A DNA stretch of 64,000 nt, from the NCBI RefSeq assembly GCF_058153355.1, contig NZ_CM177019.1; one strand, given 5' to 3'. Below, one piece after another: positions 17,985 through 35,170 of the stretch. Under the pieces are notes generated by a model that saw only the letters and a program-made list of their open reading frames with translations, had not been told where the DNA came from and searched no databases. The position numbers and the translations under genes are program-made. Position 1 is the stretch's first letter, and each line of letters starts with the position of its first letter.

Positions 17985-20747
<2,763 letters not shown>

Positions 20748-24804: not shown

Positions 24805-25665
24805 TTATTCTCGCGAAATACCATCCAACGTAGACAACACGTCCGCAGAAAGATGCAATTTTTCTGCGGCCATATTCTCCCGTAAATGAGCAACAGAAGA
24901 CGTTCCTGGGATCAGCAAAATATTCGGTGAACGCTGTAAAAGCCACGCCAGCGCCACCTGCATTGGTGTCGCATTAAGGCTCGCAGCAACATCGGAAAGC
25001 GTGGAGGATTGCAGTGGCGTAAAGCCCCCGAGCGGGAAGAACGGCACGTAGGCAATACCATCGCGGGCCAAAGCATCAATCATTGCGTCATCAGCACGAT
25101 GAGCAATGTTGTATTCGTTCTGCACACAGACAATTTCGGTAATCTTACGCGCCTCTGCAACCTGCGTCGGTGTGACGTTGCTCAGGCCAATATGTTTTAC
25201 CAGGCCTTGTTGTCGCATCTCTGCCAGCACGGTCAGGCTGGCTTCAATCGATCCTTCCGCTGGGCCATGACCATCCCCCATCATAACGCGCAGGTTAACC
25301 ACATCCAGTACGTCCAGTCCGAGATTACGTAGATTATCGTGTACCGCTTTTTGCAACTCTGCCGGAGAAAATGCAGGCAACCAGGAGGCGTCCTCTCCAC
25401 GCCGCGCCCCAATTTTAGTAACAATGGTCAGGTCGTCAGAGTAAGGATAAAGCGCTTCGCGGATAATCTGATTGGTGACGTGTGGACCATAAAAGTCACT
25501 GGTATCAATGTGATTAACGCCTAATGCCAGCGCCTCGCGCAGCACGGTTATAGCGACGTGGCGATCCCTTGGGGGACCAAAAACTCCAGGACCTGCCAGT
25601 TGCATCGCGCCATAACCAAGACGGTTAACGGATTTTGTACCGAGAGTAAATGTGTTGCTGCTCAT
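24805..25665 (-). CDS. pdxI: pyridoxine 4-dehydrogenase, aldo-keto reductase (YdbC/PdxI)
   Basis: 286-aa AKR-family ORF MSSNTFTLGTKSVNRLGYGAMQLAG... Confidence 0.9.
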   Translation of the reverse strand: MSSNTFTLGTKSVNRLGYGAMQLAGPGVFGPPRDRHVAITVLREALALGVNHIDTSDFYGPHVTNQIIREALYPYSDDLTIVTKIGARRGEDASWLPAFSPAELQKAVHDNLRNLGLDVLDVVNLRVMMGDGHGPAEGSIEASLTVLAEMRQQGLVKHIGLSNVTPTQVAEARKITEIVCVQNEYNIAHRADDAMIDALARDGIAYVPFFPLGGFTPLQSSTLSDVAASLNATPMQVALAWLLQRSPNILLIPGTSSVAHLRENMAAEKLHLSADVLSTLDGISRE

Positions 25666-25820
25666 CGCACCCTGCCCTGTAATAAAACGGATTAAGAAAA
25701 ATCAGTATAGAAACGAAAAGAGTTAAATAATGCGAAGGCGTAAACAAGATTACTGGATGAGTTCCTCTATTGTCCTGAAAAACACCAAAACAAAACGCGT
25801 CAAGCGCCGCATCCGGCAAT

Positions 25821-25850
25821 AAAAAACCGCAACCTGTATCAGCGTTGCGG
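25821..25850 (-). terminator. rho-independent terminator of ydbA (with adjacent partial REP)
   Basis: CCGCAAC...GTTGCGG hairpin followed by a 6-nt T run on minus strand just 3' of the ydbA stop; REP-like GCCGCATCCGGCA at 25805..25818. Confidence 0.6.
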
Positions 25851-25872
25851 TTTATGCATCACATACTAAAAA

Positions 25873-28800
25873 TTAGAACGTTTTCTTGAAGTTCAGCATC
25901 ACGCCTTTATCGCTGATACCATCCTCTTTCCAGTGGTAAGCATCCAGATTCAGCGAACTTTCTTTGCTGCTGTACTTCACGCCGACGCTTGCCAGACTGT
26001 TGATGCCGCCGCCCTTTTGCCCATCATCGACATTAAAGTGCTGGCTGCCTGCGCCTGCCAGGCTTGCCGTGCGCTGGCTCTTCGTGTAGCTCAGGTTCGG
26101 GCCGCCTTCCAGCGTGGCGTTCGCGCTCCAGCCGTCTTTGCCTGCGTAGTCCAGCTTCAGCCCGACGATACTGTCCACCGCCGTTTCGCTGCCGCTGTTC
26201 ATGCTCAGGTTAAAGTCTCCGGCATTACGCTCCTGATAACCGCCTTCCAGCGTGTGACGCAGTTTCACACCCGCATATGGCGTGATTTTCAGCCCTTCGC
26301 GCGGTTCAAAGGTTTTCGCCCCTTCGCTGCGGAACTCCAGGTACTGCTGTTTCACGTTGGTATCCGCCGTTTTGCTAACGTCGCCGTAAGCCACCGAACG
26401 GCTGCTGTCCAGTTGGTGAATATCGTAACGCAGCGCGTTATTCCAGCTCATACCGTTGTCAAAGGACATCTGATGCTTCAGGCCAAAGAACTGGCTGTAG
26501 CCGCCTGTAACACCATTATCACCCGCTTTCTGCGCACCATCGCCGTCCAGACGGGCGATACCGTACTCCAGGCTCATGGTCTGGTTTTCGCTCAGGTCGA
26601 GGGTTTTGCGCAGCGCCAGCATGTCGTACTCGGTATTATTCCCCAGCTCTGCACGCGGATCGCCTTTCGCCACCACGTTAAATGCCAGACCGTTGCCCAT
26701 CTTCGGTGCTGCGTCCGCCAACATGCTGAAGCGGTTACTCAACACGCGGGCCTCACGAAATACCGTGGTAGCCTGGCTCCCGCTGACTTGTTTCAGCGCG
26801 CTGTTCAGCTCTGCAGTGGTGCCAACGTTCAGACTGGTATACAGCTCGTTGTTGGTGTAACCCGCATCCAGCGCTTTTGCCACGTCATTCACTGAGGCAT
26901 CCGTCGCCACATCGGTGTAGGCGTTTTTGCTCATGGTCACGTCAACGTTGCCGCTGGCGTCGGTACTGCCTGTCGCCTGCCAGACAACAGATGTCGAAGT
27001 GATCGCTTGCGCATCAGTCAGGTTGCTGCCTTGCACCACATCATCAAAGCTGACGGTTTTGTCCGCCGTTCCCGCCGCAAAATCGGTGTTGATCTCCACG
27101 CCGTTCATACTGGCGTTATTGAGCATCAGCTTACCGGCGCTACCGTCGGCGTTCGTCCCCACCACGTAACCATTGAGGTTGTTCATGCCATCGTTGCGGC
27201 TAACGGAAGAAGAATGGGTGCCGTCGTATGGCGTAATGGTGGGTTCTTCCGGCGCGGTAAAGTCGACATAGTGCACTTCCGTACCGTCTCCGCCTTCGCC
27301 ACTACCCTCCATCGCCGTGCCAGATTGTTTAATTAATCCGGAACCATTCACGCTGTCGTCAATATAAACAGTGCCGTTGTTAACAATATGACCATTGCTC
27401 CCGAGCTTGCTGAAAGCCCAGGAGTTATTGGCGTAGATATTAATCGTACCGTTGTTTTCAACCACACCATCCGCTTTCGCGTCCGATGCTAATTGCATTC
27501 CAACCATACCTGTATGCGAAGTGCCTTCGCTACCAATATTGATAGTGCCATTGTTGACCATTTTTGCGCTGCCGTGCGCATTCATGGCGATGGTATTATT
27601 TTTATCAATATTGATAGTGCCATCGTTAATTGCCCGGCTACCGGCGTTATTATTTGGCGTCGTAACCTGGCCGTTAATCACACCTGTCGTACCGTTATAC
27701 AACGTATGCCCATTACCGCTGGTAGCGATATCAGCATCACCATTCACTGTACCCCAGTTGTTGAAATGCCCAGCCCAAAGTCCGTTATCAAGAAGATCGA
27801 CAACACCACCGACCAGGTTATTAAAGGTCGCGTTTTTATCAACCGAACCACTGTGAACCGTTCCTGCGTTATTGAAAGTGGCTGCGGCAGAAAAATTCAC
27901 TTTATTGACCGTTCCATCCGCTTCGTTATTCATCACGGCAGAAGCTGAGGCCCCTTTCCAGGCTGTTACCGTCCCGGCGTTATAAAACGTACTGGCCCAT
28001 TGTTCAACAGTGTTCATGGTGCCGGAATTGTTGATAACAGAACCCGCAACGGTTGTACCTACCAACCCGGTCACCGTACCTTCGTTAGTGAACACGCCGC
28101 CATCCACAGAAACGGTTTTTGTCGTGCCCTTATTGGTGTATTCCCCACCGGTTGCGATATCAACCTCATTAATACTGCCCGTGGTTTCATTGACCAAACG
28201 GCCAAAGTCAGCCACGGTGACAGGCCCCCCGGTAACCGTACCCGCGTTGGTTACCAGGGTTTCGGCGGTTGCCGTGATATCAGTCGTACCGCCATATGAA
28301 GACAGGTTAAGCGTTTCCCCGTCAGCCGAAATAATGTCACCATTTCTCCAGCTTAATGAAACAAACCCGTCAGTCGGGTTATAGGCGTTATTGTCCTGGC
28401 ATTTCCCAAAAGTACAGATGGTTCCGTAATTAACAATAGTCCCGCTGCCATCGTTATAGAACGCCTGCCCGTTTTCGGCATTGATATTGATGATGCCAGT
28501 CTGATCATTAATCGCAGTGGCACCATTGTAAACAGCCATGCCGACCAATTTATTTGGCCCCAGCGTATCATCATCATTTTCATTTACTTCCAGATTTATA
28601 GTTCCCTGGTTAATAATAATGTTACCTGGCTTCATCGCGGCCATACCGGCACCGGAATTATAGAGTGTTATTTCACCACCCTGCTGGTTAATGGCGGTAG
28701 AATTAACGCTGGCACCAGAACTGTCTGTACCCACAGCCATCCCGACAGCATAATCTTTGGCGCTGTCATGAGCGATATTGGACGCCAGACTGGAAGTATC

Positions 28801-31371
28801 GTTTTCATCAACCCATAATGCGTCAATGAAAATCTTACCCATATTGTCAATGGTTGAATTATTGGAGGCCAGCATGCCAACACTCCCCCGGCCGTACATT
28901 TGGATCTCACCGGCAGTATTATTTGAAGCGGTGCCATTGTTGCCTGCCGTCATCCCCGTCAGACTAATGACTTGATTATTAAAAATTAAAGGGTCACTCA
29001 AACCTTGAGCGTTCAGACTATTGAAAATACGTCCCTGCGCGAGTACCTTACTGGTGATGGCACTGTTATTAACAACTCGACCACCATAGACGCTCAAATA
29101 CGCAGAACTAGCAGAGTCTGATGTATTCCCCTCTACGCCGTAGATAGAAATCGTTACGTTGTTATTATTTACAGCTAGCGACTCTTCACCAGTAGCCCTG
29201 GCAAAGCCAATATTACCCAGTTCTACATCACCATTATTTATCATCTGCGAACCGGAATTCACCAGTACAACCTGTGATGTGTCACTATTATAATGATCAA
29301 ATGTATTTATATCTTTTAGGATAAAAGTGGCGTTGCGGCCAAGTTCTAAATGGGCTCGGTTATTCAGTTGAATGATATCGCCTAATCCAAGCGGAAAAAC
29401 ACCACTGATTGTTGAATCCCCATTTAGATACAGAGTAGAGTGCCCATCGATTTTGATAACAGGCGTATCGCCATAACCATTACGTTTTAAAGCAGGTGTG
29501 GAGCCATCCTGTAGAGTATTTTCTTCGCCAGCTAAATGGATACCACCATTAATTTCGACGGTATTACCGTCACCCGACACAACCAGACCATTAATATTTT
29601 CCTGGCTGCCATCCATTTCATTATAGATACGAGAAGTGACTTCACTGTCAGCAACAACGGTAAGATTGCCATTTAATACGATATTATTGTCGTGTCCCTG
29701 CACCTGAATGCCAACAGAAGGGGTAAAAAAGTCATTTATTGAATGCTCTCCGGCCTGATTTTTATCCACCAGAATATTACCGGTAATTTCAACTTCATTG
29801 CCATCACCGGCTACATTTACCCCTGTCGCAACACTGCCGGTCACATTAAGCTCATTTGTCGCCAGCGTCATGGCGTTATTATTTCCAGAGACATCCAGAC
29901 CGGTTGAATAATCCCCTACATCCACACGGCCAGCCAGAGAAATCAGACCATCATCTCCGATGATGCGAATCCCGGTACTGAAATTATCAGCAATGATGTC
30001 CCCCACATTGATAAGGGTAGAATGATTACCCTCAATCAGAATCCCTGTCGCATTGGCCTCTGAACTACCATTACTGACGGAAATATCCCCCCTGTTAATG
30101 AACGTCGACGCATCACCACTGAGAGAAACACCCTGCGAATTTTCATCCACGACCGTTATATTTCCTTTGTTGCTGACGATCGCGCCATTACCCTCAACAT
30201 CAATACCCCGTGCAGCATTGCTAACGTATAAATCCCCTTCCTGTATAACCGTCGCATTATTACCAACGATTTTGCTGCCCGTTGAATTTTGCCCATCAAC
30301 CGTCATATGTCCTTTATTATCGGTCCTGACATCATTACCGCTAATAACGGCCCCTATTCCGCCGTTATTGACAGTGGAGTCGCCAGTGTTATTTAAGATT
30401 GTACGATCGCCATTGACGATAACCGCCGTGCCAGCATCGACCACCGTCTGACCGTTATTATTGATGGTTATATTATCGCCGGTCAGGATACCGACCACCG
30501 AACCTTCACCGACAGCCTCTGTTTTACCCTCGTTTGTCAGCGCAATGTTGTTACCATTAATCATCATCACCGTGCCGCCATTCAGGGCCGTGTTACCGCC
30601 CTGGTCAGTGATAATCGCATCATTAACGGTAATTATTCTGCCCGTTGTTCCATCAGACACGACACTGGCTAACTGTGTGACGTGGAGTTTACCTTCGTCA
30701 TCGTAGCGCCATTCCATATCACCTGTGGTACTCACACCACTAAACATGGCGGTATGAGTCTCTTCATGGTTTTCCCACTCAGTCACAATGGTTTTTCGGC
30801 CATCTTTTGCCGTCAGCGTGTAGCTACCATCTTCATTTTGGGTATAAGTGAACGTCGCCCCGCGAATCTTCAGGGTTTGCGCGTCCTCGTCCCATGTCAC
30901 ATTGTTATCAAAGACAACGGGTTCTGTTCTCGGGGGGTCAACATCATCACCGCTATTGTCGGGTGGAGTAACATTACCGCCGTTATCTGGCTTTACAGGT
31001 ATACCTGAATCTTCATCACTGGGAACGGGTAGCGGTAGAGGGCCATTATCATCTGGCGGTATGGGCTGGGGAAAAGAAGAGTGAGCAGAATGATCATTGT
31101 CATGAGACAATTCAATCACTGCGAGTGTTGCCAGTACCGCCGTGGCACCTAATGCCAGTAACGAGCTGAAACCATTATTTGTAACAACAGCACATTTTTC
31201 TGGCACTGTTTTCAACTTCGTTGACGGTCGGGCGTGCCCTTCTGACTGACATGTCATTTGAGAGCTTCTGCGCATACTGTCTGCACTCTCGCCTTCTGTT
31301 ATTTCCGCCCCCCAGCTTTGGCCACTTAACGCTATAGCGATACACGCTGATAATAACGTTTTCTTTTGCAT
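25873..31371 (-). CDS. ydbA: autotransporter adhesin YdbA, intact (signal peptide, long repetitive passenger, C-terminal beta-barrel)
   Basis: single 1832-aa ORF; N-terminal signal peptide; Gly/Asn/Thr-rich repeats; C-terminus ends in aromatic residue (...MLNFKKTF) typical of autotransporter barrels. Confidence 0.85.
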   Translation of the reverse strand: MQKKTLLSACIAIALSGQSWGAEITEGESADSMRRSSQMTCQSEGHARPSTKLKTVPEKCAVVTNNGFSSLLALGATAVLATLAVIELSHDNDHSAHSSFPQPIPPDDNGPLPLPVPSDEDSGIPVKPDNGGNVTPPDNSGDDVDPPRTEPVVFDNNVTWDEDAQTLKIRGATFTYTQNEDGSYTLTAKDGRKTIVTEWENHEETHTAMFSGVSTTGDMEWRYDDEGKLHVTQLASVVSDGTTGRIITVNDAIITDQGGNTALNGGTVMMINGNNIALTNEGKTEAVGEGSVVGILTGDNITINNNGQTVVDAGTAVIVNGDRTILNNTGDSTVNNGGIGAVISGNDVRTDNKGHMTVDGQNSTGSKIVGNNATVIQEGDLYVSNAARGIDVEGNGAIVSNKGNITVVDENSQGVSLSGDASTFINRGDISVSNGSSEANATGILIEGNHSTLINVGDIIADNFSTGIRIIGDDGLISLAGRVDVGDYSTGLDVSGNNNAMTLATNELNVTGSVATGVNVAGDGNEVEITGNILVDKNQAGEHSINDFFTPSVGIQVQGHDNNIVLNGNLTVVADSEVTSRIYNEMDGSQENINGLVVSGDGNTVEINGGIHLAGEENTLQDGSTPALKRNGYGDTPVIKIDGHSTLYLNGDSTISGVFPLGLGDIIQLNNRAHLELGRNATFILKDINTFDHYNSDTSQVVLVNSGSQMINNGDVELGNIGFARATGEESLAVNNNNVTISIYGVEGNTSDSASSAYLSVYGGRVVNNSAITSKVLAQGRIFNSLNAQGLSDPLIFNNQVISLTGMTAGNNGTASNNTAGEIQMYGRGSVGMLASNNSTIDNMGKIFIDALWVDENDTSSLASNIAHDSAKDYAVGMAVGTDSSGASVNSTAINQQGGEITLYNSGAGMAAMKPGNIIINQGTINLEVNENDDDTLGPNKLVGMAVYNGATAINDQTGIININAENGQAFYNDGSGTIVNYGTICTFGKCQDNNAYNPTDGFVSLSWRNGDIISADGETLNLSSYGGTTDITATAETLVTNAGTVTGGPVTVADFGRLVNETTGSINEVDIATGGEYTNKGTTKTVSVDGGVFTNEGTVTGLVGTTVAGSVINNSGTMNTVEQWASTFYNAGTVTAWKGASASAVMNNEADGTVNKVNFSAAATFNNAGTVHSGSVDKNATFNNLVGGVVDLLDNGLWAGHFNNWGTVNGDADIATSGNGHTLYNGTTGVINGQVTTPNNNAGSRAINDGTINIDKNNTIAMNAHGSAKMVNNGTINIGSEGTSHTGMVGMQLASDAKADGVVENNGTINIYANNSWAFSKLGSNGHIVNNGTVYIDDSVNGSGLIKQSGTAMEGSGEGGDGTEVHYVDFTAPEEPTITPYDGTHSSSVSRNDGMNNLNGYVVGTNADGSAGKLMLNNASMNGVEINTDFAAGTADKTVSFDDVVQGSNLTDAQAITSTSVVWQATGSTDASGNVDVTMSKNAYTDVATDASVNDVAKALDAGYTNNELYTSLNVGTTAELNSALKQVSGSQATTVFREARVLSNRFSMLADAAPKMGNGLAFNVVAKGDPRAELGNNTEYDMLALRKTLDLSENQTMSLEYGIARLDGDGAQKAGDNGVTGGYSQFFGLKHQMSFDNGMSWNNALRYDIHQLDSSRSVAYGDVSKTADTNVKQQYLEFRSEGAKTFEPREGLKITPYAGVKLRHTLEGGYQERNAGDFNLSMNSGSETAVDSIVGLKLDYAGKDGWSANATLEGGPNLSYTKSQRTASLAGAGSQHFNVDDGQKGGGINSLASVGVKYSSKESSLNLDAYHWKEDGISDKGVMLNFKKTF

Positions 31372-32017
31372 GAGAAATCCTTTTCAATGAATGACATTTC
31401 AAATAATAAAATATGAGTAATAGATAAGAAATAGCCACAGGCTGTGTCATGATTTAATGCCTGCTCTTGAAATTTTATTTAGCAATCCCAGAACATTCAA
31501 CTTAATTAGTATTTCGAAACCTCAATGTAGACACATAAAAAACAAATTATTCGATTACTTAGGCTATTTGTTGCATTAATACACATCCTCTAACAATAAT
31601 CAGACAAAAAGCAATGTCAGCGTCAAATTGGGTAGCTGATTCATATTACTGACCACTCCGGAAATTCATTCATCGTGAAAATATTAACATTTCAACCATG
31701 TTCCATTTAATCAACCCACTGAAAATCTGGAGGTTATCTACTGCGGTTTGTTGTTGACTGCCCCTGACAGGTTTACCAGGCGTTGACAGAAGATGAGGCT
31801 TGCAAGATGCTAAAAACAATGTGGTGTTACAAGCAATCCCATAAACCTCGTAACTTCACTTAAATGAGCGATGCCGTCCATATTTGGGTTGACTATAAAA
31901 ACCCTTAATATTGAGGTTGATGATGATATTCATGATGGCATTGGAAAAATAGGACACCCATAAAATATCTATACAGCCTTTAAATTAAATCATTGAAATA
32001 TCGCTGTTGCATAGTGC

Positions 32018-32344
32018 TTATTTTTGCAACCATTTCCCGTTAATTCCCTGCACATATTCCCCCGGTTTGGCCCGAGCTACAAGCTTTTGTCCGGCAAGCT
32101 TCGCGATATCATCTACCGATACATTATTTTGCTTTGCCAGTTGTTGATAACTCACTTTACGTGCGGCATTAATCTCGGTTACTAATTTCTCTGTTTCAGC
32201 ATCCGTTTTCAACGCAACCAAATAACCGTTAAATGTTTCACCTACCCGCCCCTGAATTCTGGCCTCGTCCAGTGTTAATGCCACTACATTGCTGCTTACC
32301 AGTCCAACAAGAAACGCACAAAGAAGTAATGTTTTCTTCATCAT
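32018..32344 (-). CDS. ydbL: YdbL (DUF1318 periplasmic protein)
   Basis: ORF to 32422; 108-aa product from MMKKTLLLCAFLVGL (signal peptide); last gene of ydbH-ynbE-ydbL. Confidence 0.85.
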   Translation of the reverse strand: MMKKTLLLCAFLVGLVSSNVVALTLDEARIQGRVGETFNGYLVALKTDAETEKLVTEINAARKVSYQQLAKQNNVSVDDIAKLAGQKLVARAKPGEYVQGINGKWLQK

Positions 32345-32348
32345 CCCC

Positions 32349-32534
32349 TCAGAAAAGATCGCTACGGGTTTTGAGTAAATCCTCGACATCTTTGTCTGCC
32401 TTAATGATGATCTCATGCTCAATTTTAACGTTCATATTGATAGTGATCGGTTCCTTAGGTGCAGCGACTTCAATGCGAGGCGTACAGCCAACCAGCATAA
32501 AAGATGACGTCAACGCAGCCAGTAAAATTTTCAT
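32349..32534 (-). CDS. ynbE: lipoprotein YnbE
   Basis: 61-aa ORF MKILLAALTSSFMLVGC... with lipobox; start overlaps ydbH stop by 4 nt. Confidence 0.85.
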   Translation of the reverse strand: MKILLAALTSSFMLVGCTPRIEVAAPKEPITINMNVKIEHEIIIKADKDVEDLLKTRSDLF

Positions 32535-35170
32535 TGTTTTTCCTCACACCCTTTTCCTTGCGGACAGCCATTTTCCGGCAGACGCGCGTTCTGCTCCAAC
32601 CATGCCTGGAGATTATCGCCAAAGCGTAAACTGCGCCACAGGGTAAAAATATTCTCTTCATGATGGTAATTAAGGTTTACCGTACCACTTTTACCGTCGA
32701 CGCGACTGGTACCTGTAATATTGGCCTGCATGGTTAACACACCGAGATTATCTAAATTAATTTTTGTCGATGAACGGTTAATTTCCATATAGCGCAACCA
32801 GTTAATTGCAGAACCCGCGGTCATATTGTCTTTCACCACCGCATCTGCGGTGTCTTTATCCAGCCGCAAGGTCATTGGTCCGCTATTTGCCAGCCAGCCG
32901 TCTTTAACTATCCATTTTTCATTGTTCAGCCATAAAGGCAATGCCCCACTAAATGCCCCGGACATGGCGAATTGTTTCGGATTGACGGCGCTAACCAGTT
33001 CGCTGGATGAGAGATTATTCAGCCGCAACAGCGCCGGGTCATGTTGCGGCATGCGTAATTGTTTCATCAGCACGTTACCGCCTAACACATCGACGCTAAC
33101 ATCGGTCAACAACAATGGTTCGTCTTCACTCCACGGATAACGCCCTTGCAAATCAGCCGTAATATTTTTCGCTGTCACCAGATTAATCACTTCGGCAATT
33201 CGCAACGTAACGGGGCCGCGAGTCCCCAGATGCCAGGCTCCATCGGCAAAACGGAAAGGCAGGACAAAATCGACACCGTTAACCTGATTATCTGGCATCC
33301 AGGCACTACCGCCTTTCAACACACCGTGCCCTCCCGCGCGGAATCCTTGTTCAGGCGCAGCAGAAAATGCGACCTGGGCATACAGTTCGCCATCGCGTAA
33401 GTTCATCTTCCAGTCGGGTGGCACCAGCGGCTGGAATACGGTCAGTGATTGTTTAGGCCACCAGGCGTTACCGCGCAGACGAATACCGTCCCAGCGACCA
33501 TTTACCCGAACCGGGCCAATCTCACCAGCATGTAAATCGCCTTTAAAGAGGAAATACGTCGGATCGCGTCCATCGACGCTAAATTTTAAGGTTGATGGCG
33601 GTAACACACTGCCGCCAGTGAACAGCGTTTGCCCGGCGTCCAGTGACAGCGCGCCGCTAAAGGAGGGATGCTGTGCGTCACGTACCCAGACGACGGGCTT
33701 GTCGAGAATTAATCGCGGCTTTTCTACCGTCATCGTACCGTATTGTAACTGGTCGAAACCGGTTGAGAGATCGGTCAGCGTAATCGTGCTGTCATGCCAC
33801 TCACCTTTTCCTGCGACATCCCAGGTGGCATTCATCGGTGTAAAACTCCCTTTTCCCCAGTAGCGCCACTGCCAGCGGCCAGCGTCAGGGAGAAAATCAT
33901 TCGCCAGCCCATCCATATGCAGTACGAAATCGCCCAGTTCATTTTCATGCGCCTGCAAAATGGCCTGCAAACGTCCGTCAACACCACGTTGGGTGACTTT
34001 TACACCCGCTAAAGGCCAGCGGATTTCATCAATATCCAGCGAATCGATGACTCTTCCCTTCGAACGTAATAACGCGCCTGGCTCAAAGGCCAGCGTTGGG
34101 TCAGTCAGACTTCCGCTTAGCTGCGCAGGTAAACGGGCATATAAAATGAGGTCCGCCTGTTTCGCTTCACCGGTCAGCTGCAAAGGCAGCTGGCTGTTAT
34201 CCATACTTAATTTTCCTGGGCCAAAATTAAGCACCGCGTTGCCCTTACCCGCTTGCCCCTGGGTCAGCACACTCAGTCGTCCGCTGACCAGAGCGTTCTC
34301 AAGCCCTGCCTGCCAGTTGTCGACTTTGACACCCAGTCGTCCACTCAAAGGAAAACCTGCATACGGCCAGCTCCAGCGACCATCGCTTACGGTCAATTGT
34401 TGGCGAGTAATTTGCCACGGCAGATCGAGCAACGGATCGCCGTTATCCCGTGCCAGCACAATCAATTGCCCGCTATTTTCCTGCCAGTCCAGCTCGGCAT
34501 CCACCAGTGAAGGCTCCTGCGGCAAGTTTAACGTCGCAGTAGCATGACCCCTTACAGGAAGTCCATCCGGCACTAGCGGCATAGTAAATTCCCCCACCAG
34601 TTTAACCGGCGGCTGATTTTCAAACGCAGCGACATCCAGTTCGCTGACTGTAAGTTGTTGCCCTTTCAGCTGGCCTTGAAATTTAACTTTTTCGCCCTGA
34701 TAACGCAGTTGCTGGATATCGGAGTTTAATGCGAGAGAGAGTTTTCCCTGCCATTCCTGCCAGGGAGAAAAAATCAGTTTATCGATATTGATCCAGGTGT
34801 TAGGCAACATGGCCTGCCACTGCGCGAGGGTTTTTGGAGCGGCTGGCGATTGCTCCGTCTGCGGCAATTTCGCCAGACAAGCAGAATCAAGTTCTACCGT
34901 GCCGACGTTCAATAACCAGCGGCTGGGATGAGAAAGGCTGGCGTTGGTGATATGTGCAAGCTGACAATCTCCTACCAGATAACGGAGATCGGGAATGATT
35001 AAACCTTTACGCGTAATGCGTGGGCTTTCATCTAAAGCAATACGTGTGCCGAGCGGTAGCCAGATGCCCGCCAGCGTGGGAACCCACAAGCCGAGCGTCA
35101 TCAGCAGCGTCAACGGCACAAGAATAATCAGTAATAACAGCGCGAGAACGGCTTTATATTTACCCAGCAT
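32531..35170 (-). CDS. ydbH: YdbH, AsmA-like large envelope protein
   Basis: 879-aa ORF with N-terminal membrane anchor MLGKYKAVLALLLLIILVPLTLLM...; matches YdbH. Confidence 0.9.
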   Translation of the reverse strand: MLGKYKAVLALLLLIILVPLTLLMTLGLWVPTLAGIWLPLGTRIALDESPRITRKGLIIPDLRYLVGDCQLAHITNASLSHPSRWLLNVGTVELDSACLAKLPQTEQSPAAPKTLAQWQAMLPNTWINIDKLIFSPWQEWQGKLSLALNSDIQQLRYQGEKVKFQGQLKGQQLTVSELDVAAFENQPPVKLVGEFTMPLVPDGLPVRGHATATLNLPQEPSLVDAELDWQENSGQLIVLARDNGDPLLDLPWQITRQQLTVSDGRWSWPYAGFPLSGRLGVKVDNWQAGLENALVSGRLSVLTQGQAGKGNAVLNFGPGKLSMDNSQLPLQLTGEAKQADLILYARLPAQLSGSLTDPTLAFEPGALLRSKGRVIDSLDIDEIRWPLAGVKVTQRGVDGRLQAILQAHENELGDFVLHMDGLANDFLPDAGRWQWRYWGKGSFTPMNATWDVAGKGEWHDSTITLTDLSTGFDQLQYGTMTVEKPRLILDKPVVWVRDAQHPSFSGALSLDAGQTLFTGGSVLPPSTLKFSVDGRDPTYFLFKGDLHAGEIGPVRVNGRWDGIRLRGNAWWPKQSLTVFQPLVPPDWKMNLRDGELYAQVAFSAAPEQGFRAGGHGVLKGGSAWMPDNQVNGVDFVLPFRFADGAWHLGTRGPVTLRIAEVINLVTAKNITADLQGRYPWSEDEPLLLTDVSVDVLGGNVLMKQLRMPQHDPALLRLNNLSSSELVSAVNPKQFAMSGAFSGALPLWLNNEKWIVKDGWLANSGPMTLRLDKDTADAVVKDNMTAGSAINWLRYMEINRSSTKINLDNLGVLTMQANITGTSRVDGKSGTVNLNYHHEENIFTLWRSLRFGDNLQAWLEQNARLPENGCPQGKGCEEKQ

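Follow-up and report, generated by a model that had tools for sequence, protein, structure and literature searches.

In Salmonella, BigA continues to appear among the candidate adhesins (PMC13228587), and its published classification combines an AIDA-I-like passenger with a barrel of the NalP group (PMC3419190). The family member of Escherichia coli K-12, ydbA (b4492), carries a pseudogene annotation, with the insertion sequence (IS) elements IS2D and IS30C dividing it into three fragments. The ydbA region is a known zone of heterogeneity, and about 42% of the genomes in phylogroup A are reported to carry ydbA at full length (PMC4951805). The searchable literature yielded no functional study of either YdbA or enterobacterial BigA. 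Here we describe the gene that occupies the ydbA slot in a 64,000-nucleotide (nt) stretch of contig NZ_CM177019.1 (assembly GCF_058153355.1); this whole stretch is referred to as the window. An earlier note, made from the sequence alone, had described the gene as one continuous open reading frame (ORF) for a large adhesin or autotransporter. Our analysis indicates that it is very probably an intact and maintained classical type Va autotransporter gene of the BigA/YdbA family at the ydbA locus, present as a rare recombinant allele.

Identity and architecture of the autotransporter

Examination of the ORF listing and its translation revealed a single frame running from ATG through 1832 codons to one terminal stop. 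The coordinates given in the earlier note for this frame were exact, and the strand, which it had left unstated, is minus (Table 1). An AAGGA Shine-Dalgarno sequence is located 8 nt 5' of the ATG. The gene lies between ydbL and pdxI-ydbD, immediately upstream of pdxI(ydbC)-ydbD. The note's description of K-12 ydbA as a pseudogene interrupted by IS2 and IS30 agrees with the b4492 annotation. When the IS elements were removed from K-12 ydbA, a clean frame of 2,020 codons was obtained, and the window protein was collinear with this reconstructed YdbA from end to end at 58% identity (1832 versus 2020 codons). Given both the position next to pdxI(ydbC)-ydbD and the collinear protein, the gene is a ydbA orthologue, and matches to BigA_N and BigA_beta above the Pfam gathering scores make its product a member of the BigA/YdbA family. 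The K-12 and window genes have in common their slot, their domain order, the cysteines Cys10, Cys41 and Cys60 and a hydrophobic stretch near residue ~68; in contrast, the K-12 gene is split by IS elements and the window gene is uninterrupted.

Identity to K-12 YdbA was 37-57% through most of the passenger, with one block of 72%, and 87-97% over the last ~430 residues. At the DNA level, no homology to K-12 was detectable in the 646-nt upstream region or in the first ~1.4 kb of the gene, patches of 66-69% were present further into the gene, and identity was 83% across the last ~2 kb. The implicit claim that a K-12-type ydbA is here made whole did not survive this comparison, given 58% amino acid (aa) identity and the lack of DNA homology in the 5' third and upstream. 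The result thereby corrects the tempting reading of a restored K-12 pseudogene. The NCBIfam model for Salmonella BigA (NF033178, auto_BigA) aligned over aa 441-1832 with 986.4 bits, far under its 3400-bit cut-off; the window protein shares BigA_N and BigA_beta with BigA and is a relative, not BigA itself.

The C-terminal β-barrel predicted in the earlier note, whose absence it had named as evidence that would refute the interpretation, was recovered by a domain search, a structure model and a fold comparison. When the last 350 aa were scanned alone, the autotransporter β-domain PF03797 was matched (E = 9.9e-19; 68.5 bits, cut-off 26); the same domain was unreported when the full-length protein was scanned. 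An AlphaFold2 (AF2) model of aa 1341-1832, built from a 36-sequence family alignment, had a mean predicted local distance difference test (pLDDT) score of 85.8 and comprised a β-sandwich, a helical junction, an 18-residue helix and ~12 long antiparallel strands. The sandwich strands of BigA_beta (aa ~1397-1482) were modelled with a pLDDT of ~90. Comparison of the model with the PDB using Foldseek gave type Va translocators for all of the best matches (EstA, AaaA, NalP, EspP, Hbp and BrkA; E values from 1e-10 to 1e-5), whereas a PDB sequence search with the full protein gave no match, so that fold comparison alone succeeded. The barrels of NalP, EstA and EspP resemble the window barrel in their 12 strands and internal α-helix (Foldseek E values from 1e-10 to 1e-7; TM-score 0.67-0.72 for NalP), but sequence identity is 13-17% and the passengers are unrelated, a protease or an esterase rather than a long β-helix. 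The protein ends in GVMLNFKKTF, an outer membrane protein β-signal with an aromatic last residue that is conserved in the family representatives.

The N-terminal signal peptide described in the earlier note was also identified. Judged by eye, it has n-, h- and c-regions and small residues at -3 and -1 of a site between SWG and AE, consistent with a Sec-type peptide; AF2 placed a helix at residues 4-16, and the feature is conserved in 31 relatives. A lipobox reading of LSAC (aa 7-10) was rejected, as it leaves five residues only before the Cys and is missing in several relatives; NalP has a lipobox, and the window protein does not. Classification as a serine protease autotransporter of Enterobacteriaceae (SPATE) was likewise rejected, since the Pfam scan contained no protease (Peptidase S6) family and the pore-helix linker has no SPATE-type Asn-Asn cleavage pair. 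Because no such cleavage motif is present, the passenger probably stays attached to the cell.

Composition of the passenger was as the earlier note had observed, rich in Gly (14%), Asn (13%) and Thr (10%). An AF2 model of aa 1-560 (mean pLDDT 78.7, domain cores >90) predicted a three-faced parallel β-helix with three strands per rung across aa 236-560, with rungs of ~24 residues and pLDDT values of 90-98. In this model BigA_N, named in Pfam as the 'BigA and YdbA N-terminal beta barrel domain', forms a small β domain that caps the N-terminal end of the helix. The passenger had also been called repetitive. This held for the fold, with its successive rungs, and failed for the sequence: Tandem Repeats Finder detected zero tandem repeats in positions 25600-32600, and self-BLASTP of the protein (E ≤ 1e-3) gave no internal repeat high-scoring pairs, so repetition at the sequence level was rejected. 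A weak periodicity of 8/16 residues fits the ~24-residue, three-strand rungs of the model. The pertactin-like repeats suggested earlier were not found, as Pfam reported no AIDA or pertactin repeats with the full-length protein (E ≤ 0.01) and nothing at all with aa 241-1340 scanned alone (E ≤ 10). The Pfam copy scanned was one without the models BigA_3rd (PF27417) and BigA_4th (PF27415), and both of these domains are precomputed in the passenger of P0001, a protein 99% identical to the window protein. The passenger family is narrow, with 171 cluster representatives at E ≤ 1e-3 among 1.84 billion. A CxxxxC pair at aa 986/991 (ICTFGKC, positions 28399-28416) was present in four of four alleles examined (window, K-12, P0106 and the E. 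albertii allele P0007). The pair is kept despite ~40% surrounding identity, and belongs to the part of the passenger that is best conserved (aa 901-1000, with 72% identity to K-12).

Searches with the N-terminal passenger model returned phage depolymerases, tailspikes, polysaccharide lyases or epimerases, together with the autotransporters Ag43 and TibA, and RefSeq calls some relatives 'pectate lyase-fold domain-containing protein'. On these matches the passenger could be, in place of an adhesin, a surface β-helix that binds glycans or acts as an enzyme, for example as a depolymerase or polysaccharide lyase. However, one match only reached E ≤ 1e-3, TM-scores were 0.1-0.3 at ~10% identity, values expected of any right-handed β-helix, the presence of Ag43 and TibA in the same list does not favor an enzyme, and Pfam identified no catalytic family; we consider an enzymatic or glycan-binding passenger improbable. 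The window protein resembles AIDA-I, Ag43 and TibA in carrying a long β-helix passenger on a type Va barrel, with Ag43 and TibA among its weak structural matches. It differs from them in having no Pfam AIDA or pertactin domain, and in BigA_N, BigA_beta and an N-terminal Cys-loop/hydrophobic/spacer module that are specific to the BigA/YdbA family. AIDA-type repeats are ~19 residues long, compared with the ~24-residue rungs modelled here. Taken together, the predicted Sec signal peptide, β-domain, β-signal and modelled β-helix (aa 236-560) assign the protein to the type Va autotransporters.

Table 1. Features of the ydbA-locus autotransporter gene and its flanks (window coordinates)
Feature	Position	Strand	Basis
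BigA/YdbA-family type Va autotransporter, complete ORF, ydbA locus	25873..31371	minus	ORF listing, translation, family matches
AT-rich intergenic region, ydbL to autotransporter gene, presumed promoter site	31372..32017	minus	646 nt, 34.6% GC
Predicted Sec-type signal peptide, aa 1-21, MQKKTLLSACIAIALSGQSWG followed by AE	31309..31371	minus	Inspection, AF2 helix, family conservation
Cys41...Cys60 loop	31192..31251	minus	Both cysteines invariant in 31 family members
Transmembrane (TM)-like hydrophobic segment, aa 68-88, FSSLLALGATAVLATLAVIEL	31108..31170	minus	Conserved; most hydrophobic 19-mer of the protein
Asp/His patch (SHDNDHSAHSS) and short degenerate Pro/Asp-rich spacer, aa 89-151	30919..31107	minus	Sequence comparison
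BigA_N (PF25784), aa 152-232	30676..30918	minus	Pfam 89.6 bits, cut-off 24.5; AF2 pLDDT >90
Passenger, aa ~236-1396	27184..30666	minus	AF2 where modelled, composition, conserved Cys pair
G6 homopolymer, codon 1048	28225..28230	minus	G7 in 2020CK-00188
Mosaic block	27372..28371	minus	12-31% DNA divergence from R32_14_1F, sharply bounded
BigA_beta sandwich (PF25783), aa 1401-1484	26920..27171	minus	Pfam 91.3 bits, cut-off 24.3
Predicted helical junction and pore-spanning α-helix (aa ~1536-1553, TVFREARVLSNRFSMLAD)	26713..26919	minus	AF2
Predicted 12-strand autotransporter β-barrel, aa ~1562-1832	25876..26688	minus	PF03797, AF2 pLDDT >90, Foldseek
Weak terminator-like hairpin	25793..25814	minus	59 nt past stop codon; such sites not above chance here

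Selection, frame integrity and expression

To assess maintenance of the gene, the ratio of nonsynonymous to synonymous substitution rates (dN/dS) was compared at several depths. Against the two nearest relatives (98-99% identical) it was 0.11-0.12. Against R32_14_1F it was 0.06-0.33 in every segment, including the mosaic block (dS = 0.86, dN/dS = 0.15), and against K-12 it was ~0.06-0.16 where dS was estimable, dS being saturated over codons 1-1000. These values show strong, continuing purifying selection and argue for a gene that is maintained.

No internal frameshift, which the earlier note had named as evidence that would tell against it, was present in the assembled ORF. An intact frame might nevertheless reflect an assembly or sequencing accident, or a gene inactivated very recently, with no full-length product in either case. 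Four homopolymers of six nucleotides occur in the gene, three of G and one of C (the tract in Table 1 and those at 31308-31313, 30932-30937 and 30087-30092). The copy in 2020CK-00188, the nearest complete genome, has a single indel when compared with the window, G7 in place of G6 at codon 1048, as a result of which it stops at codon 1055 and is annotated as two coding sequences (CDSs). On the other side, G6 at this codon is common to the window, R32_14_1F and the P0001 locus, and the 2020CK-00188 copy reads through fully after removal of one G; the window therefore represents the normal state and the 2020CK-00188 copy the outlier. The ORF is also equal in length to that of P0001 (99% identical; cluster of 113 sequences), and the low dN/dS against the nearest relatives likewise speaks against an accident. 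We conclude that an accidental or newly lost frame is very improbable. For the G7 tract, both a genuine mutation and an error in sequencing the homopolymer of the 2020CK-00188 assembly are conceivable, and the G6 tract at codon 1048 is the most likely place for any frameshift to appear on resequencing. Phase variation at this tract was considered and found unsupported, G7 occurring in one genome only.

The shadow ORFs that the earlier note had reported on the opposite strand are real and a by-product of the coding. Over 1833 codons, the antisense frame in register with the codons is interrupted by only 41 stops, equal to the number obtained by synonymous-codon shuffling, and the largest shadow ORF has no Pfam match.

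Several observations weigh against the interpretation of the gene as a working classical type Va autotransporter. The literature searched gave no expression, secretion or adhesion data for any YdbA allele. The β-helix model of the passenger spans aa 236-560 only, Pfam AIDA or pertactin repeats are lacking in the scans described above, and the passenger matches in Foldseek are weak and generic. The TM-like segment that follows the signal peptide has no explanation within the classical scheme for type Va proteins, and it could hinder export through Sec. Finally, a promoter scan of the locus was not above chance, a promoter-like site at 31500..31472 included, and the AT-richness of the upstream region (34.6% GC, compared with 48.4% in the whole window) is compatible with silencing. 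Counts of promoter and terminator sites were the same as the shuffled expectation and no promoter is claimed; Rfam gave no match in positions 25000-33000 (E ≤ 0.1), so that no known RNA element was detected in the long upstream region.

The last of these observations bear on whether the gene is intact but cryptic, ordinarily silent through, for example, H-NS-type silencing of the AT-rich upstream region. Such a state concerns expression alone and is compatible with an intact and maintained autotransporter. In addition to the base composition and the lack of a promoter signal above chance, it is consistent with K-12 data in which an rpoZ mutation raised ydbA transcription ~7.7-fold, along with that of prophage genes and others of foreign-like character (PMC5811629), and with the remark by the authors of a study of Salmonella adhesins that inducing conditions are unknown for most of these (PMC13228587). 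In contrast, purifying selection is strong even among relatives that are 98-99% identical, which implies that use of the protein is frequent enough to keep it maintained. On balance we hold an ordinarily silent gene to be a real possibility, to which we give rather less than even weight. Expression under H-NS derepression, which the earlier note had proposed as a check, is plausible.

Allelic variation and chromosomal setting

To place the allele in the species, the gene was compared with 5,426 complete E. coli genomes. At least 80% of the gene was covered in 17 of them, with a best match of 98.0%, and a single CDS was annotated in 16 of the 17. Any match to the gene was found in 3,071 complete genomes; the 13 partial matches listed individually covered the 3' 24-42% of the gene only, at 80-88% identity. 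In 967 genomes the K-12-type 5' fragment was covered to ≥80%, and there are other types of allele as well, for example an ST131 (sequence type 131) type at ~85%. The exact window protein was absent from a collection of 15 billion sequences; P0001, at 99% identity, is of matching genomic context. Hundreds of full-length E. coli relatives of 1,860-1,960 aa are annotated, under the names 'autotransporter domain-containing' or 'BigA/YdbA N-terminal beta-barrel domain-containing' protein. Intact ydbA is thus common in natural E. coli and routinely annotated, its intactness in the window is unremarkable, and with a 99%-identical protein already public the gene is of a known kind.

The common full-length E. 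coli YdbA alleles (for example P0106, in a cluster of 1619 sequences, and P0005) are 62-67% identical overall to the window protein. They share its architecture, its set of BigA_N, BigA_3rd, BigA_4th and BigA_beta domains and a near-identical translocator, but carry a perfect PVPPDDGGDT array of 11-17 copies where the window allele has a short degenerate spacer.

R32_14_1F is near-identical to the window over most of the gene outside the mosaic block. Protein identity in 100-residue bins across alleles revealed a different affiliation for different parts of the passenger. Residues 501-900 were 100% identical to P0001 and R32_14_1F and 41-65% identical to P0002 and P0003, whereas residues 1101-1300 were 94-99% identical to P0001 and P0002, 67-69% identical to R32_14_1F and P0003, and 82-85% identical to an E. 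albertii protein. By these comparisons the window gene, a rare allele, is a recombinant mosaic in which modules assort independently among alleles.

The gene is flanked on one side by nifJ(ydbK)-ydbJ-hslJ-ldhA-ydbH-ynbE-ydbL and on the other by pdxI(ydbC)-ydbD-ynbA-ynbB. Across the ydbH-ldhA flank, identity to virtually all of the 5,426 complete genomes is 95-99%, which identifies an ordinary E. coli chromosome, and the flanks are 99.9% identical to R32_14_1F. In K-12 the fea-tynA-paa cluster lies between ydbL and ydbA; this cluster is absent from the window, 2020CK-00188 and R32_14_1F, and in all three ydbL is followed by the 646-nt AT-rich spacer and then directly by the autotransporter gene. 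The left neighbor is therefore ydbL, and not paaY/ynbG as in K-12. Within ydbH, positions 33372-34371 are 4-8% diverged from 2020CK-00188 and identical to R32_14_1F, with surroundings near-identical to both, a pattern that points to a recombination patch in a flanking core gene. A separate change was observed in ynbC (ORF 19617..20747), where 301 nt are absent at site 19652/19653 compared with both close relatives (corresponding to L001 19721-20021). ynbC encodes 585 aa in both relatives, and the longest ORF left in the window is 376 aa; the missing length is not divisible by 3, so the deletion has probably left ynbC as a pseudogene in the window.

A conserved N-terminal module and the proposed role of the protein

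Between the signal peptide and BigA_N lies a module composed of the Cys pair, the TM-like segment, the His/Asp patch and the low-complexity spacer, and all family members whose N-terminus is intact, at identities as low as ~25-30%, were found to carry this combination, among them the relatives P0005, P0106 and P0123-P0183. The family consensus of the Cys loop is CP..(I/L)S.L...E..KLP..C; the window form (CQSEG...VPEKC) is atypical, with both cysteines kept. The TM-like segment is Gly/Ala-rich and exceeds the signal-peptide core in hydrophobicity. The spacer repeat unit varies by lineage. In P0005, P0106 and P0007, which are common E. coli and E. albertii alleles, it forms a perfect tandem array of PVPPDDGGDT or VTPPDDGGN in ~11-17 copies, and array copy number accounts for protein lengths that rise in increments of 10 aa (1861, 1871 ... 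1961). No 10-aa tandem array is present in the window allele. AF2 gave no confident structure for the module (pLDDT <50 for residues 1-150), and Pfam searches with the module of the window protein and of four relatives produced sub-threshold noise only (TrbK, DUF6234 and YjbE); assignment of the module to a glycine-zipper family is accordingly unsupported.

The comparisons show conservation of this module, and we consider it unlikely that it is a functional device of a kind undescribed for type Va autotransporters. As such a device it might serve, at the far end of the β-helix, as a tip that inserts into membranes or associates with itself, on a tether of adjustable length. The N-terminal GxxxG region of VacA bears a loose resemblance to such a tip. 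Another possibility is a transient inner-membrane tether during secretion. If the module does have a function of this kind, the window allele would be a natural short-spacer variant.

By analogy with described type Va systems, the precursor would pass through Sec across the inner membrane with removal of the signal peptide, and would be chaperoned through the periplasm. The C-terminal barrel would then be inserted by the β-barrel assembly machinery (BAM), and the passenger would be threaded outward C-terminus first, to fold as a β-helix stalk of ~1,150 residues projecting off the cell. Its distal tip would comprise BigA_N, the spacer, the hydrophobic segment and the Cys loop. A role as a surface adhesin or aggregation factor is the likeliest; we infer this role only, from resemblance within the family, because no functional study was found and BigA itself is only a candidate adhesin.

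Of the features of this gene, the conserved N-terminal module with its hydrophobic segment and spacer is the one most worthy of experiment and the sole real curiosity, and the window allele is usable as an intact, repeat-free representative for work on YdbA/BigA function. For the family as a whole, the comparison of alleles indicates that the locus is a recombination hotspot at which very different passenger alleles are carried on a conserved translocator. Recombination would thus diversify the exposed passenger and leave the translocator conserved, a pattern of alleles expected for a surface-exposed protein under diversifying pressure.

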